DNA from: Bythopirellula sp.
GTDB lineage: Bacteria; Planctomycetota; Planctomycetia; Pirellulales; Lacipirellulaceae
Assembly (NCBI GenBank): GCA_965216565.1
Contig: OZ244170.1
Span: 2,304,001 to 2,368,000 of the forward strand
Direction: 5' to 3'
Length of the DNA stretch: 64,000 nucleotides
This document shows, piece after piece, positions 18,322 through 24,150 of this stretch. Each line of letters begins with the position of its first letter. The stretch's first letter is position 1. The notes beneath the pieces were generated by a model that did no database searches, was not told the DNA's origin, and saw nothing but the letters and a program-made list of their open reading frames with translations. The position numbers and the translations under genes are program-made.

Positions 18322-19111
18322 CTAACAAATCCAACGATTAGAGGGACCAATTAGGGCCAGCAAGGGCAATAGAAGTATTCCTAGATTCGGCTCGGGCACT
18401 GCGGACAGGTTTGGAGTGAGCGGTATGCCCGTTCCAAATTCTTGCTGCCAGTCCAGAAAATCCAATCCATTGAGGTCCACTCCATAGCGAGCCTCCCAGC
18501 CAAGCGTTGGATGCGTGAGATCATTTGAATCGACATCACCATCGCCATCAAAATCCGCTTTTAAGTTCTGGAACAGAAATAATCCGCTGTCTCCATTGGT
18601 GAAGTCGACTGAAAACAGCAGATTGCCCAAATCGTTTAAGGCGGTAGGACTGCCGTCGTTTCCACCTGAGCCGCCTACGAAATCGAGTGACGCGATCGTT
18701 CGACCCGCCAGATTATCGCCCTCCTGGGCAATCAATACACCTGCTCCTCCTGAGTCCATCAGCCACAATCCCGAGTCGTTGCTGGCCCCCACCGCACCGC
18801 CAAGCTGTAAGGAAGCTTTCAGTGCGATCTGACCGGCAGAGTTTAATACATACTTTTCAAAATCGTCGAAGCTGGCCCCCACAATGCCAGGCACGCCTGC
18901 ACTTCCACTACGGGCAATTTCGTTTGATGTAACGCCATCAAACGACCAGATTCCACGGCTGTCGCTGGCTGTAACTCCTCCCACACCAGCCACAAGTTCA
19001 CCATGGACGATAACATCTCCGCTATCACTCAATAGAGGAGTCTCGAACGACTCAAAATCAGCATCTGCAATCCCCGGCACCCCTCCCGACCCCGTTTGTG
19101 CAATCCGTTCC
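18322..19111 (-). pseudogene. 3' half of an IS-interrupted PEP-CTERM protein with NxxGxxAF-type repeats
   Basis: Repeats (LNSAGQIA, LNDLGNLLF), ADFDGDGDVD..DFLDWQ and VPEP plus TM segment. Joins in frame with 23011-24007 once the IS is removed. Confidence 0.9.
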
Positions 19112-19277
19112 GGCACTGGTAACCTTCCGTGTGGGATTTCTTCGTATTCCCCGTGATTCCCAGCCGTTGGCGGATTGTTTGCATTTTATTCCGCTAGCAA
19201 TGCTATAGTACCAATTGCGTTGGCCTGGACTTGGGGTGTCTATCACGCAACAATTCCAATCCGCTCTAACTCCCCAA

Positions 19278-19311
19278 CAAAAAAACCCGGTTGCCATTAC
19301 TGACAACCGGG
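19278..19311 (-). terminator. Rho-independent terminator
   Basis: Minus strand reads CCCGGTTGTCA-GTAA-TGGCAACCGGG followed by a T-run, just downstream of the 19337-19507 ORF. Confidence 0.85.
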
Positions 19312-19336
19312 CTCGATAGAACAAGTTTACTGCACT

Positions 19337-19507
19337 TTAGGCGTACTGGATCAGCTTCCATGTCACGGCTTTACCATTGTATGGGGGCATCACATTGCCC
19401 TCTGCAATGGGTGCAGTTGTGGATGGCGTACCTTCCACTTTCCACACTCCGCTCTCTGGACATCTTTGACCAGTAGTCGCTGTAGTGCCTATCGGTTTTT
19501 TGCTCAT
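19337..19507 (-). CDS. 56-aa small protein (YjzC-like TGQxCPxSGxW motif); absent from the ORF track
   Basis: Translated by hand: MSKKPIGTTATTGQRCPESGVWKVEGTPSTTAPIAEGNVMPPYNGKAVTWKLIQYA. AAGGAG RBS upstream, terminator downstream. Confidence 0.8.
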   Translation of the reverse strand: MSKKPIGTTATTGQRCPESGVWKVEGTPSTTAPIAEGNVMPPYNGKAVTWKLIQYA

Positions 19508-19541
19508 CTCAAACAAACTCCTTTAAAAAAGAGGAAAAAAA

Positions 19542-19811
19542 GTGGCCAGCTTCGGACTAATAAAGCCCTTCGACATCGACCACGGGGAACTCGATGGACT
19601 CCGCCAACAAGATTGTTTTGTCCTTGGCTATGAACTTGCTCAGATCGACCAACTGCTAAAGCAGCCAGAGTCCATCAATAAACCAGTTCACGCTGACAAC
19701 AATAATCGTATAAAAAAAGCCTGTGTCGAATCTGGTCGCCAATACAGCTTGACGTGGATGTCCGGTGACTCGTCAGAGTCATGGATGCATCTTCAAGTTG
19801 ACGGCTTGTAA
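19542..19811 (+). CDS. Hypothetical IS passenger protein (89 aa)
   Basis: GTG start with GAGG upstream; globular composition; divergent from the 56-aa ORF. Confidence 0.6.
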   Translation: MASFGLIKPFDIDHGELDGLRQQDCFVLGYELAQIDQLLKQPESINKPVHADNNNRIKKACVESGRQYSLTWMSGDSSESWMHLQVDGL

Positions 19812-20092
19812 AACGACAACGACTCCCAAATCTAATAATTAAGCATCATTGCACGCATGCGCGGCAACTCTATCGGTGCTATTTGGGGATGCTGTGCCAG
19901 AGGCGGCGAGATGTGAATAACGTCCGCTACTCCATTAACAGTCAATTCCTACTCAGAATATACATAATTGGAACGCGGTCGCAAGGGGCAAAGCCAACTT
20001 GCGACCGCATCCAATAAAGACGTTATTCACGGGCAACTTTGTACCATTTTTCACAATGTCTCGTCAACTAGTTTTTGCACTATTCCGTGCTG

Positions 20093-21037
20093 TTAGTTTG
20101 CGGCATTTATCAGCAATTCTCCAACACCCCAGGCTTTTTCTGTCAAACCAGCGGCCATTGCTGGGGTCTCGCCTAGCGAGTCATGCTTGCGAGCAAAGTT
20201 GTAGTAGCAGAGATAGATTGCTTGCATGGCCTTGTGATGCTCTAGGCTCTTGCTGTGGGCATTCGTGAGACGGGTGAACCGTCGCAGATGCATTCTATAC
20301 TTCTGGTTGAAGGATTCGATATGGCTCGTGCAGACGTTCTCTTGCTTGGGGTTACCGTAAACAGCTTTCTTCTCAGAGTTTATTATCGTGGCCGGGCTGT
20401 AGCGGGTCTGCGTTTGGGTAGATGCGTAGTTCTTGACGATCTGGCCATAGTCTACCCGATTGCCGAAGGTGAACGGCACGTTGTTGGTGTAGGTCGATAG
20501 GCCGTCAGTGGACAGTTGGAAGCGGCCAGCGGTCGCACGGTCTAACTTCTCCAAGAATCGAACAGTGGTTTCGCGATCCCGGCCACCAATCTCATAGGCC
20601 AGAACCATTTTCGTATTCCGCTCGATTCCAAGAAACGTCCAGGAGTCGCCGTACTCTTCCCCGTAGCCATTGGCTTGACGGGTTTTTTCTTTACAGCCAA
20701 CGAAGCTCCAGATTTCATCGGCCTGCACGTCCTCAACTTCGATGTCGCGTAGGCTGTTCATCAGGCGTTCGCAGTTGTTGCCGACTGTGAGAATGAGATC
20801 GGCCAGAGTTTGACGGCAAAGGCCGGTCACACGCTGTACTGAGCGAATCGACATGCCCTCTAGCAACAGGGAGATAGCGGTAGCGGCTTGCTTGATATCG
20901 GTTCGCATGGCCCCTAGTGGGCTCTCTGGCTTGTCAACGAAAGTCTTGCCACACAGCGAGCACTTCAAACGGGGGTGACCTTGACGGTCTTTCCCGTGTT
21001 TGTGGCAATTTTCGTGTTGGCAGGCGGTTACTATCAT
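20093..21037 (-). CDS. IS1-family transposase (single ORF)
   Basis: N-terminal Cys cluster (C..C...CSLC), HTH (GMSIRSVQRVTG), DDE residues in VQADEIWSFVG, STDG and HIES, plus RRFTRLTNAHSK and TPAMAAG. Confidence 0.92.
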   Translation of the reverse strand: MIVTACQHENCHKHGKDRQGHPRLKCSLCGKTFVDKPESPLGAMRTDIKQAATAISLLLEGMSIRSVQRVTGLCRQTLADLILTVGNNCERLMNSLRDIEVEDVQADEIWSFVGCKEKTRQANGYGEEYGDSWTFLGIERNTKMVLAYEIGGRDRETTVRFLEKLDRATAGRFQLSTDGLSTYTNNVPFTFGNRVDYGQIVKNYASTQTQTRYSPATIINSEKKAVYGNPKQENVCTSHIESFNQKYRMHLRRFTRLTNAHSKSLEHHKAMQAIYLCYYNFARKHDSLGETPAMAAGLTEKAWGVGELLINAAN

Positions 21038-21047
21038 TGTTCTCTCG

Positions 21048-21118
21048 TTGATTTCAGTATACTTTAATCAAACGAGGGCTGCAATAGATTAGGGTTGATT
21101 TTTGGAAACTTTTATCAA
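21048..21118. promoter_or_regulatory. Two TTGAT-N14-ATCAA palindromic operator-like sites between divergent genes
   Basis: TTGATTTCAGTATACTTTAATCAA (21048-21071) and TTGATTTTTGGAAACTTTTATCAA (21095-21118). Confidence 0.6.
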
Positions 21119-21128
21119 ATAATCTGGC

Positions 21129-21320
21129 ATGGCTAAGAAAGCAACAAAACGGGGCGGAAAACGCCCAGGCGCAGGACGACCCGCCAAAGCCCCTAGCGAG
21201 AGGCGAGATCAGGTCTTTTCCGTCAAGCTGACTGCTGACGAGAAGAAGCTACTAGACGATACAGAGGCGCGCACGTGGGCACGCGACGTATTGCTACGAT
21301 CCGCTCGCAAGAGACAGTAA
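21129..21320 (+). CDS. Small basic DNA-binding protein (AT-hook-like RGGKRPGAGRP plus possible ribbon-helix-helix)
   Basis: Basic tail, then strand VFSVKLT and two helices; divergent from the transposase. Confidence 0.7.
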   Translation: MAKKATKRGGKRPGAGRPAKAPSERRDQVFSVKLTADEKKLLDDTEARTWARDVLLRSARKRQ

Positions 21321-21321
21321 G

Positions 21322-21412
21322 CGGAGAGTGGGGGAGTCGAACCCATCCGATGGACGGACCCCTAGCACAGTGTATAAGGCTGCTGCATCAACCGAGATGC
21401 GGGCCGCTCTCC
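21322..21412 (-). ncRNA. tRNA-like (degenerate class II, tRNA-Ser-like) sequence, TAT at the anticodon position, no CCA
   Basis: Acceptor GGAGAG/CTCTCC+G; D-like stem GCATC/GATGC; anticodon arm GCAG..CTTATAC..CTGT; variable hairpin TCCG/CGGA; GGG-TTCGACT-CCC T-arm. Confidence 0.6.
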
Positions 21413-21499
21413 AGAGTGGCCCAAATTCAGATGCTAAAATCGCAATGTATTCATGGCGTCCACTAGACTTGAATACTGGAACAGAGGTTCACTGCAAGA

Positions 21500-21769
21500 T
21501 CAGGAGGGTAGCTCTGTGGAGATGTACGAACCTGTGATCCTCGTTATAAAATGCTCTCCCTGGTGTTCGCAGTAATCAACATTCAGCGCAGCAGTCCATG
21601 CCCTGCCTTCATGGGTGCATGTGATTTGAATGTGCACAGGAGATGATTTAGTTGTAGAAGAGATAACTGAGTCAATTCTTTCAGCAAAAATAATGCGGAT
21701 GGCCTCAGGCACATCCGCATCATTGCTAAAAAACTGCTCAATTGTCCTAAGAAGCCATTGAACGTTCAC
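21500..21769 (-). CDS. Hypothetical IS passenger protein (89 aa)
   Basis: Overlaps the stop of the upstream ORF, suggesting translational coupling. Confidence 0.5.
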   Translation of the reverse strand: MNVQWLLRTIEQFFSNDADVPEAIRIIFAERIDSVISSTTKSSPVHIQITCTHEGRAWTAALNVDYCEHQGEHFITRITGSYISTELPS

Positions 21770-22025
21770 TCATAAATTCCTTTAAGGACGTAAATTCCTT
21801 TCGTTCAATGCACTCTTGGATGTCTTGAATCTCGCCAGTGTCTATTTCCATAGACTCAGAGAGAGACTCTAGAACCTTGTAGACACCAACATTGATGTCT
21901 TCTAGGGTCAAGTGACCCGTACCCGAAGACTGCATATATGCTTCCAGCCATGCCGTCAACTGGCGACGGATGGTTGGCTCATACGCGCGTAGGATTCTCT
22001 TGGCATCAAGTGGAATTGTAGACAT
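21747..22025 (-). CDS. Hypothetical IS passenger protein (92 aa, acidic C-terminus)
   Basis: ATG start MSTIPLD; helical composition. Confidence 0.55.
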   Translation of the reverse strand: MSTIPLDAKRILRAYEPTIRRQLTAWLEAYMQSSGTGHLTLEDINVGVYKVLESLSESMEIDTGEIQDIQECIERKEFTSLKEFMSERSMAS

Positions 22026-22312
22026 TTTAATAACCCGTGAGAGATTGCTTACATGCTGTACCGATACTCCATTAACCGCTATCGGCTGCGGCACTCCCCA
22101 ATATTTAGAACGCAACAGACGCTCAAAAGTTCGCTAAACAAAGAAAAGCCCCGCAATGTATAAAGCTTAGGGACCATTGTCAATCCATAGTTGGTCGGCA
22201 CCCTAAGTCTAGAATGGCAAGCGAGTTGTGTCAATAATAGAGTTGGTGGATTGTGACAAATAAGTGATACATCCGACCGAAAGCATTGGCATAACAGGAT
22301 TTATTGCTAGCA

Positions 22313-22936
22313 CTATTCTCCCGCAGGGGTGCCAAGGTTACCACTACATATAGTCCAACCGGACACTTCGGATCGGATAAACCGCCGTGGATTTGCATGA
22401 AGGGATTTCCTGACGCACCGCAGAACCTTCCCCGGATCGTCCTCGGCACGACAGCCCAACGCCTGAATTGCTACTACTAGCTCTGCTGGCTTCATACCCT
22501 TCGACCCCTCTAGCACCTCTGCGATGACATCCGACATCGGCATCACGGCATAGGGAGGGGCGGCAGTGTCGTTGTCGAAAGTGACCCAGAGAATATGCCC
22601 CTTGTCGTCCTTGGCAATCCGCCTCAGTTCCTTGCGGTCGGCGAGGGTATAGACAGCAGCTTTGACGGACCCACGATTCCAGTGGCGTTCTGGCTCAGCA
22701 GCTTGGAGAATCTCAAGCACTTCACGATTCGAGAACGGACGATCACGGGGCATAAACTCACGCACCGCGTCTATGGCCGTCTTGCGAACTCTCAAGCCTG
22801 GTTCTGGCTCGTCGCCTAGTTCGCGTCGCAGTGAGTTGATCTTGTCGCAGGTGTCCCGGTACTCTTTGCGCGCCAGCGTGATTGCTTTATCAAGTTTTTC
22901 CGCTGCCTGTTTCTTTAGTAGTTCGTAGGCGTCCAT
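22313..22936 (-). CDS. Hypothetical IS passenger: coiled coil plus two putative winged-helix domains
   Basis: N-terminal heptads; FSNREVLEIL..GSVKAAVYTLA and MSDVIAEVL..MKPAELV patterns. Confidence 0.65.
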   Translation of the reverse strand: MDAYELLKKQAAEKLDKAITLARKEYRDTCDKINSLRRELGDEPEPGLRVRKTAIDAVREFMPRDRPFSNREVLEILQAAEPERHWNRGSVKAAVYTLADRKELRRIAKDDKGHILWVTFDNDTAAPPYAVMPMSDVIAEVLEGSKGMKPAELVVAIQALGCRAEDDPGKVLRCVRKSLHANPRRFIRSEVSGWTICSGNLGTPAGE

Positions 22937-23010
22937 GCCCAAGATGGTAGAATGATCGGAGGGGCTAGCAAGTGGGTCGATTAAATCCCACACACTAGGT
23001 TACCAGTGCC

Positions 23011-24007
23011 TCCGTTCCCCAGTGGTTCCTGTATAGAGCCAGATGCCTTTGTCGTTGGTCGAGCTGATTGAGCCAGCGTGGGTAAGTTCTGAATAGAATG
23101 CCAACTGATCAATACCATTGATCACCGGGTCGCTCAATTCCGTAAAGTCAGTCGAGGCCACGCCTGGTACCGCACCAGCCCCTTGGCGAGCAATCACATT
23201 TCCACCCAACGGGGAATACTTCCAGATCCCGATGAAGTTGGTCGAATTGATACCACCCCCTTGTACTAAACTTGCTCGGAACGCAATCTGTTGATCGTCG
23301 TTGATGGTTGGGCCAACGAAATTATTGAAGATGCTTGATAGATCGGCAGCGACCGTTGTGTTCTCGCGTGCTAAAAGTGTCCCGCCCAATGCGTCGTAAG
23401 TCCAAATGCCACCATCGTCGTCTGAGGTTACGCCTCCCGTCGTGGCAAGCGAGGCATCGACTGCAATCTGGCCGATATCGGAAACATGTAAACTGTTCGG
23501 TAGGAAGTCAAATACTCCGTTAGTGACGCCAGGAGCGGCAGAATCCCCAGTACGGACGACAAGTGAATCGCTGCCAGAAAATCTCCAGATACCTTCACGG
23601 TTGGAAGCGTCCACCCCGCCACTGCCCGTCTCAAGAGAACCACGCACGAACACATCCCCAGCATTGCTAACAGAAAGGTCTCGAAATAAATCATAACTCG
23701 CACCGGCAACCCCTGGGACGTTTCCCGAACCCTGGCGGGCAAGCAACGAAATACTCCCTTGATCGAAGCTCCAGATACCATTTGCATCGCCAGATACGAC
23801 TCCGCCAACGCCGGTCTGAAGTTGTGCAGGGAAAGCAATGGTGCCACTATTATTGATGACTCCGGCTTCGAACGTATCAAATAACCCGCCCGCTACTCCC
23901 GTGGCCGCGTCGCCCGACACGGCAATTGTTGTTACCGTAGCGTGGATAGGTTCACTAAAATATGTAGATAACAAGAGAACGAGCCAAAGTGATTTAGAAT
24001 AAGACAC
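23011..24007 (-). pseudogene. 5' half of the IS-interrupted PEP-CTERM repeat protein
   Basis: Signal peptide, then repeats (INNSGTIAF, INDDQQIAF, INGIDQLAF, GIW). Ends WLYTGTTGER at the target duplication. Confidence 0.9.
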
Positions 24008-24150
24008 AAACGATCTCGCTTTGGGACAGACAACAAGATGAGTATAAGGTCGATATGTTCGAGGAATACCCAATCTAACGGCCAGCAGGAAGGAATGCAA
24101 AAATTTGCACTCAAATCGTGCGCATCGCTTTTACTGATGGGTAGATTCTC

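Follow-up and report, generated by a model that had tools for sequence, protein, structure and literature searches.

The window studied here, a stretch of 64,000 nucleotides from Bythopirellula sp. (contig OZ244170.1, positions 2,304,001 to 2,368,000 of the forward strand), contains a 3,899-bp insertion sequence (IS) of the IS1 family at 19112-23010, and within its one pair of ends, together with a transposase and small passenger genes, lies an allo-tRNA with the anticodon UAU. The transposase gene and its relatives keep AUA codons at fixed positions, and these codons accompany the tRNA from element to element. On balance it seems likely that the allo-tRNA supplies isoleucine at these places; the element would then need its own tRNA in order to make the transposase in full amount. 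The features on which the argument turns are, in positions of the window:

21323-21412, minus strand: allo-tRNA, anticodon UAU at 21374-21376, covariation in 10 homologues
20093..21037, minus strand: IS1-family DDE transposase, a single open reading frame (ORF) of 314 amino acids (aa), with AUA at codons 2, 218, 219 and 310 (NF033558, NF050000)
20381..20386, minus strand: tandem AUA AUA, codons 218-219, fixed across the clade (14/14 and 12/14 sequences)

The allo-tRNA and its distribution

No other passenger of the element is as conserved or as informative as the tRNA, although an earlier, sequence-only reading of this DNA had treated it as a minor extra, a "tRNA-like sequence". It has a 9-bp acceptor stem (one mismatch) and a 3-bp T stem, a long variable arm, an extra 3-bp junction helix and G73, with no encoded CCA; ARAGORN with default settings missed it, Rfam placed it below the tRNA-Sec cut-off (25.8 vs 47 bits), and folding of the single sequence was no better than that of shuffles (z -0.31). 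Its structure is under selection: across the 10 homologues, 95.8% of the cells are paired and 19 of the 29 pairs, including those of the extra three-pair junction helix, have changed on both sides, a value that none of 500 shuffles equalled and that slid controls (46-56%) did not approach. The loop letters UUAUA are invariant (18/18), with U33 and A37 conserved, and the vague label can be replaced by that of a covarying 9/3 allo-tRNA.

As far as sequence and covariation can tell, this molecule fits the allo-tRNA(UAU) group in the available part of the report of Mukai et al. (2017; PMC5389517), which is defined by a 12-bp acceptor branch of 9/3 or 8/4 (here 9, with one mismatch, plus 3, with compensatory changes), a long variable arm, a long D stem, the UAU anticodon, G73 or U73, and five-stem junction variants, all of which are found here. 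Two of the 186 UAU places listed in the part of that report consulted, compared by eye, resemble Acidobacteria-type homologues and not the subtype of the window.

The comparison covered 101 loci with related transposases, that of the window among them, and 74 of these could be delimited by GG-start ends and a duplication. With relaxed ARAGORN settings, 18 of the 74 elements have a UAU-loop homologue, among them all 10 that were delimited in the window clade; 749 kb of flank yielded one, adjoining a second transposase. The tRNA turns up in at least three separate transposase lineages, whose AUA columns are partly different. In the genus (27 genomes), 11 of 14 model matches adjoin an IS1 transposase and the three that do not are weak, with altered loops; across the phylum, in a further 150 genomes, the sole strong match lies some 440 bp from an IS1 transposase, the other 28 inspected being ordinary Ser, Leu or Sec tRNAs, although this survey used an RNA model (R1) with three helices two columns off and may have missed copies. 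The local matches persisted with the rebuilt model (R2). A survey of 151 genomes around G193 gave 26 matches, six of them with a UAU loop: one by IS1, one by IS1595, three in an IS5-like repeat and one by a dinD-like gene. The idea that the UAU tRNA is exclusive to IS1 was rejected for this reason.

Some neighbouring observations belong here. At L282:4907-6386, the UAU tRNA stands by a small ORF and a dinD-like gene that has six AUA codons, and 13 kb of sequence there gave no match to an IS1-type transposase. Other irregular tRNAs were found by default ARAGORN in 10 of the 74 elements. Irregular tRNAs of other kinds lie upstream in IS1 elements or transposase loci L028, L034, L043, L053, L054, L056, L068, L069 and L075, and further in L080-L083, L096, L104, L180 and L213; the types include amber- and ochre-type molecules, four-base-looking UGCA loops, and NGC, GGA, GCU, ACU and GAC. 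In the IS5-like elements L312-L322 (genomes G210, G445, G353, G426, G396, G363), serine-type long-arm tRNAs sit just upstream with the non-serine anticodons UAU, UUA, UAA, CCA, CAA and GCA, and are possibly mistranslating tRNAs; G210 holds three near-identical copies, and by eye these IS5-like elements have an N-terminal SWIM-like finger.

Fixed AUA codons and their coupling to the tRNA

The codons were compared in 162 distinct transposase sequences, in which the window clade and the Acidobacteria-type clade both include members where no tRNA was found. In the window clade, AUA occupies codons 218-219 in 14/14 and 12/14 sequences, at a median identity of 52% and with four-fold sites only 34% identical; in the Acidobacteria-type clade, seven columns hold 143 AUA against 1 AUC/AUU, while its other Ile columns swap AUC and AUU freely, and a second gene, the end ORF of that clade, has a fixed AUA in 7/8. 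The background share of AUA among Ile codons is 6.1% in 119 other transposases and 7.1% in the host, and among the 68 full-length transposases of the 74 elements it is 22.9% with the tRNA and 7.7% without.

At least two signature AUAs occur in 17 of the 18 intact elements with the tRNA and in 1 of the 53 without, a comparison that is circular, the columns having been defined on these clades. With the columns fixed beforehand, 80 held-out metagenome loci gave at least two signature AUAs in 9/11 with the tRNA vs 8/69 without. The two misses with the tRNA have AUAs at columns of their own instead, and of the eight loci with AUAs and no tRNA, three extend at most 530 bp upstream, four have no matching left end, and for one no ends were found.

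The same coupling appears in a second IS family. Of 26 IS1595-family loci, 20 were aligned once duplicates and broken copies had been dropped, and four of the 26 have a UAU tRNA within 1.5 kb, the distance to which the loci without tRNA were searched. A fifth, L287, was picked by its codons: it had the AUAs and no tRNA within 1.5 kb, a wider fetch revealed one farther out (83 bits, UAU loop), and the codons had therefore correctly predicted a missed tRNA. Column 256 is AUA in 5/5 of the tRNA-bearing elements and in 0/15 of the others. The IS1595-family elements with a UAU tRNA and common AUA columns are L286, L287/L323, L290, L291 and L292, three of which have a second irregular tRNA adjacent.

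Two other explanations of this pattern were weighed. The first, which we hold to be very improbable, is that the AUAs are fixed for some reason at the level of DNA or RNA unrelated to decoding, such as a pairing site or a -10 box on the antisense strand; the tandem codons do read TATTAT on the other strand, as part of a 9/12 promoter match at 20358-20386, but the pattern comprises seven columns, in frame and scattered, in a single clade, different columns elsewhere, a second gene and a second IS family. The other is that the tRNA travels as cargo of a general kind, whether as a hitch-hiker or as a replacement or decoy that counters tRNA-cutting toxins, and that the codons drifted to AUA once it was available. 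This would agree with a cargo rich in toxin-antitoxin and defence genes, with the other irregular tRNAs in 10/74 elements, and with the occurrence of UAU tRNAs where there is no IS1 transposase; drift, however, predicts scattered AUAs that turn over, not fixation at saturated synonymous divergence, and we give this account, too, little chance. A match between stop codons in the transposases and suppressor tRNAs was considered and found no support: in L056 the tRNA is ochre-type whereas the break is a TGA, and L030 has TGA stops with a UAU tRNA.

Supply of the tRNA as a possible throttle on the transposase

The mechanism that we propose would start from a transposase with AUA at fixed positions in the same element as the matching UAU-anticodon allo-tRNA. 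The allo-tRNA would be made, charged and used on ribosomes; the residue delivered at AUA would be isoleucine; and full transposase output would then hinge on expression of the element's own tRNA. From expression onward, every step is one that we infer from sequence. In the host, AUA is the second rarest sense codon (3.5 per 1,000 codons), and the genome encodes TilS and three CAU tRNAs, so that the element's tRNA is not strictly required; because the host can read AUA itself, the effect would be that of a throttle and not of an on/off switch.

Several observations weigh against this reading. Within the element set, the intact L124 has the UAU tRNA and one unshared AUA, L041, L045 and L052, also intact, have one signature AUA each and no UAU tRNA, L034 has the tandem AUA but other tRNAs, and an IS5-like element with the UAU tRNA has two AUAs only; moreover, sequences within a clade are kin, so that the counts overstate independence and are to be taken as patterns, not as P values. 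At the level of the residue, valine stands above isoleucine at the fixed columns, where isoleucine is favoured at ordinary AUA sites (rough P 0.02). As for the molecule, its long arm and G73 are of serine type, the discriminator usual for isoleucyl-tRNA synthetase being A73. Finally, in the part of the paper of Mukai et al. (PMC5389517) on which we draw, none of six UAU amber variants was active and it was suggested that most UAU allo-tRNAs go unused in translation. This amber test swapped the anticodon and scored only Ser and Ala, and would therefore be blind to an anticodon-dependent charging with Ile.

The position of valine leads to the possibility of a local recoding, in which AUA, when read by the tRNA, does not stand for isoleucine but for some other residue, with valine as the best candidate, and the transposase exists in two forms, host-read and tRNA-read. 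At the ten fixed columns, the residue profile of the tRNA-less transposases gives Val 9.8, Ile 6.4, Thr -1.8 and Ser -9.2, and in controls, on codons for Val, Thr and Ser and on AUC/AUU, the profile recovered the residue that is actually encoded. Valine comes first at the fixed columns in all three clades and isoleucine first at AUC/AUU columns (control P about 0.02); AUA and AUC/AUU are not interchangeable at fixed columns (143 vs 1), the substitutes being Val, Thr, Leu and Met. Yet valine leads by just 3.4 nats over ten columns that are not independent, a transition in AUA leads to precisely Val, Thr or Met, and the tRNA is without the C36 and A73 that valyl-tRNA synthetase needs, so that we regard recoding as unlikely. 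The wider form of the idea, that several unrelated IS families practise private decoding, with AUA reassigned (valine-like) in their own genes and an active transposase only when the tRNA is on, appears to us no less doubtful; if it were true, it would be a variant of the genetic code confined to a transposon.

The serine-type features lead in another direction, namely that a tRNA charged with serine, or one that jams decoding, limits transposition because the transposase is spoiled or its synthesis stalled where AUA occurs, with possible harm to AUA-rich invaders. In the sections of Mukai et al. (PMC5389517) that were accessible, Ser is inserted at Leu codons by other allo-tRNAs, which kill E. 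coli, and two of the UAU amber variants are lethal, although neither Ser nor Ala was inserted by any of the six. The IS5-like elements have Ser-type tRNAs with the anticodons UAU, UAA, UUA, CCA, CAA and GCA, and several fixed AUAs fall at Ile/Val columns, where Ser would hurt. Others, however, fall at polar, variable columns (90, 222, 225; in IS1595, 83, 132, 229), where Ser would have little effect, and misreading would be costly because the host uses AUA in 3.5 of 1,000 codons. Serine as the functional inserted residue was rejected by the profile (-9.2). Since some fixed AUAs stand at polar, variable columns, a dose effect of the codon would fit better than serine poisoning, and a negative control of this type seems to us an outside chance.

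The supply of isoleucine is the reading that we continue to prefer. The most abundant allo-tRNA class, itself unexplained, gains a home here, together with a definite target; should the coupling operate as proposed, transposition would be controlled by the supply of a tRNA against fixed rare codons.

The element, its ends and its insertion

The element is bounded, and the gene that it interrupts is divided, as follows (the duplications have no strand):

19104..19111: target-site duplication, copy 1, 8 bp, TCCGTTCC
23011..23018: target-site duplication, copy 2, 8 bp, TCCGTTCC
19112..19139, plus strand: terminal inverted repeat downstream of the transposase, 25/28 match, first 14 perfect
22983..23010, minus strand: terminal inverted repeat upstream of the transposase, 25/28 match, first 14 perfect
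18322..19111, minus strand: interrupted host gene, 3' half (DUF7453, NxxGxxAF repeats, VPEP-type tail)
23011..24100, minus strand: interrupted host gene, 5' half (DUF7453 / NxxGxxAF-repeat frame)

The IS1 family has ends with a GGnnnTG-type motif and duplications of 8-9 bp. Here the GG-start inverted ends and the 8-bp duplication are as that family would have them, and both the 28-bp repeats and the duplication on the two flanks had been correctly claimed from the letters. Excision of the element with one duplication restores a single open frame of 623 codons (DUF7453 / NxxGxxAF repeats), and the element was therefore inserted into a gene. The sequence-only reading had named closer ends of the transposase itself as the finding that would overturn it; among the best eight inner inverted pairs of at least 12/14 none has a flanking duplication of more than 1 bp, and a nested IS inside an unrelated element was rejected. 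Among sequencing runs, none of RNA was listed as carrying the element; contigs span it without joints but, as they may be its source, speak neither for nor against it.

The search of the genome for further ends, which had been proposed, was only partly rewarded, with no second intact copy in the source genome. There is a decayed IS1 relative, L030 (G000:C1:4675639-4677053, 38% identity), with two TGA stops, the tandem AUA and its own intact-looking UAU tRNA, for which no ends were found, and a solitary perfect 14-bp match to the element end at G000:C1:1828186, with no partner within 12 kb downstream.

The transposase scores 104.8 bits with NF033558 (cut-off 100), 29.9 with the zinc finger NF050000 (28) and 35.5 with PF03400 (24.1), and lies 981 and 1,973 bp from the ends, which bears out the interior single-ORF DDE transposase at about 1 kb and 2 kb of the earlier reading, above the IS1 cut-off of NCBIfam. 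Classical IS1 (insA/insB) is smaller than about 1.2 kb, with two frameshifted ORFs and no passengers; the layout here, 3,899 bp with a single 314-aa ORF and six passengers, is a different one, and the nearest named IS in the plasmid collection, the ISAcma3 family, has an identity of only 24%.

Passenger genes and putative regulatory sites

The remaining features of the element are these (the palindromes have no strand):

19283..19314, minus strand: terminator-like hairpin of 14 pairs with a U tail, after the 56-aa ORF (pattern match only)
19337..19507, minus strand: 56-aa passenger ORF, homologue in element L024, no Pfam or PADLOC match
19542..19811, plus strand: 89-aa passenger ORF that co-travels with the 56-aa ORF, homologue in L024, DUF3045 sub-threshold only
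21048..21071: operator-like imperfect palindrome, 24 bp, copy 1, none found in 11 relatives
21095..21118: operator-like imperfect palindrome, 24 bp, copy 2, none found in 11 relatives
21129..21320, plus strand: basic ORF of 63 aa, oriented divergently to the transposase, with homologues in 4 further elements and a similar ORF in 2 others
21500..21769, minus strand: 89-aa cargo protein of two helices and three strands, homologues at 29-43%, model pLDDT (predicted local distance difference test) 86.9
21747..22025, minus strand: 92-aa cargo protein, its gene overlapping the 89-aa cargo gene, one homologue at 63%
22155..22234, minus strand: two sigma-70-like promoter matches, 10/12 each, facing the cargo pair and the tRNA (pattern match only)
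22313..22936, minus strand: 207-aa end gene, clade-conserved (9 elements), with a helical N-terminus and a HARE-HTH-like C-terminus

All six of the small passenger ORFs that had been claimed have homologues elsewhere. None of the six gave a Pfam match above cut-off or a PADLOC match, and the PADLOC check that had been suggested for them found defence-like genes in related elements. The label "YjzC-like" for the 56-aa ORF was dropped for want of a Pfam match. HARE-HTH stands above its cut-off in two homologues of the 207-aa end gene. The product of the 63-aa basic ORF, which stops two bases short of the 3' end of the tRNA, is likely a small DNA-binding protein, perhaps ribbon-helix-helix-like from its look, the family search having given no match.

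The overlapping genes of the 92-aa and 89-aa cargo proteins probably form a toxin-antitoxin-like module that helps the element to persist, judging by the predicted complex, which reaches 0.81 against 0.00 for the best control in two of three runs. In type II toxin-antitoxin modules two small genes overlap and their products bind each other; here the overlap is seen and the binding is predicted. By the mark applied, at least 10% of contacts are common to the runs and the partner has a pLDDT of at least 70, a level attained by 116 of 157 solved pairs and by 2 of 215 mismatched pairs. The best homologues of the two proteins are on contigs of identical length, and the roles, toxin-like for the 89-aa protein and antitoxin-like for the 92-aa protein, are putative. 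The pair has no Pfam, NCBIfam or PADLOC family and no meaningful sequence match in the PDB, and in the protein atlas the 89-aa protein gave a lead only (0.76). In a 4,622-aa record, P0003, 26 stretches resemble the strand region of this protein, which may reflect a repeat protein or an artefact.

The regulatory module of the sequence-only reading survives in part. Its terminator corresponds to one 14-pair hairpin, but terminator-like sites are no commoner than chance (4 vs 3.6); promoter-like sites are slightly above chance (7 vs 3.7 +/- 2.0). Its operator-like sites are two real 24-bp palindromes, but in 11 relatives the 140 bp that precede the transposase showed none. In that same stretch of 140 bp before the transposase start, L021b, L022-L027, L030 and L160 have a recurrent A-run and GC hairpin followed by a conserved motif, which is absent at that place in the window and could be an attenuator or a promoter element.

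The family of related elements and their cargo

The claim of a transporter-type IS1 lineage with cargo is borne out by the 74 of 101 loci that share this anatomy, that is, passengers within a single pair of IS ends with one transposase, which is what defines a transporter IS (tIS). These 74 elements measure 1,769-7,913 bp (median 3,308), all with more than 750 bp upstream of the transposase, and their duplications are of 8 bp in 70, 7 bp in one and 9 bp in one; two further elements were accepted by hand (one mismatch; one register shift). L074 and L076 are copies of equal length with different duplications in one genome, and have therefore moved recently.

Three clade-specific families of end genes occupy 27, 27 and 9 elements, and the rest is a slot in which the cargo is exchanged from element to element; it does not form a single fixed system. 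Scans of 148 of the 223 longer ORFs by Pfam and of 109 proteins by PADLOC found PIN, MazF, HicB, Panacea, helix-turn-helix metallopeptidases, restriction-modification, a TIR protein, and PD-Lambda-5- and PDC-M04-like genes, while most of the ORFs and proteins scanned belong to no family. In Planctomycetota and Acidobacteriota, this family of elements is a poorly annotated carrier of genes for restriction, defence and toxin-antitoxin systems, and many of its passengers are of no known kind. Among single cases, L021 (G031:C236) has two tRNA-bearing IS1 elements within 8 kb, one with its end-gene homologue inverted at the other end; related elements occur in the viral contigs L114-L118 and L120; and a Brevundimonas jumbo phage, ON529850.1, has an unannotated related transposase.

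Comparison with known systems

IS1 examples reportedly reach up to 4.6 kb, and passenger-carrying members, the ISMhu11 group, were reportedly described by Siguier in 2009. Cargo-bearing IS1 elements have probably already been described, and the "potentially undescribed system" of the sequence-only reading is doubtful for the anatomy alone, although TnCentral, in the part of its 2021 preprint consulted, restricts tIS to IS1595 and IS66 (10.1101/2021.05.26.445724). IS elements with cargo are in general an established kind, as passages of PMC3129680, PMC7986276 and PMC9330008 attest. With single-ORF IS1 elements, tIS and, reportedly, the ISMhu11 group, the element of the window shares the DDE transposase with a zinc finger, the GG-start ends, the 8-bp duplication and the enclosed passengers; unlike them, it has a conserved end gene, a divergent small ORF and a tRNA, with the ISAcma3 family at 24%.

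The class of the allo-tRNA is already published. In the part of the paper of Mukai et al. seen (PMC5389517), one UAU copy is linked to a "transposon-related protein" and the function is left open, and no IS family or codon link for allo-tRNA(UAU) appears in its text or supplement terms as far as these go. Unlike the allo-tRNA(UAU) of the consulted parts of that paper and of a review (PMC7609411), the molecules described here lie within delimited IS1 elements and beside IS1595 transposases, and track fixed AUAs. Control of transposition by a tRNA and its codon was not found in print, nor was any link of an IS family, an allo-tRNA and fixed AUAs in the literature searched, most subscription papers being outside its coverage.

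The closest parallels are the Streptomyces bldA tRNA-Leu(UAA) with its TTA-codon genes, and the phage tRNAs that match the codon use of the phage. In these cases, as in the one proposed, a dedicated tRNA and a rare codon couple the translation of chosen genes to the supply of the tRNA. Unlike these canonical molecules, the tRNA here is non-canonical and is found together with its targets in one mobile element of 3-4 kb, in a host that has another reader of the codon.

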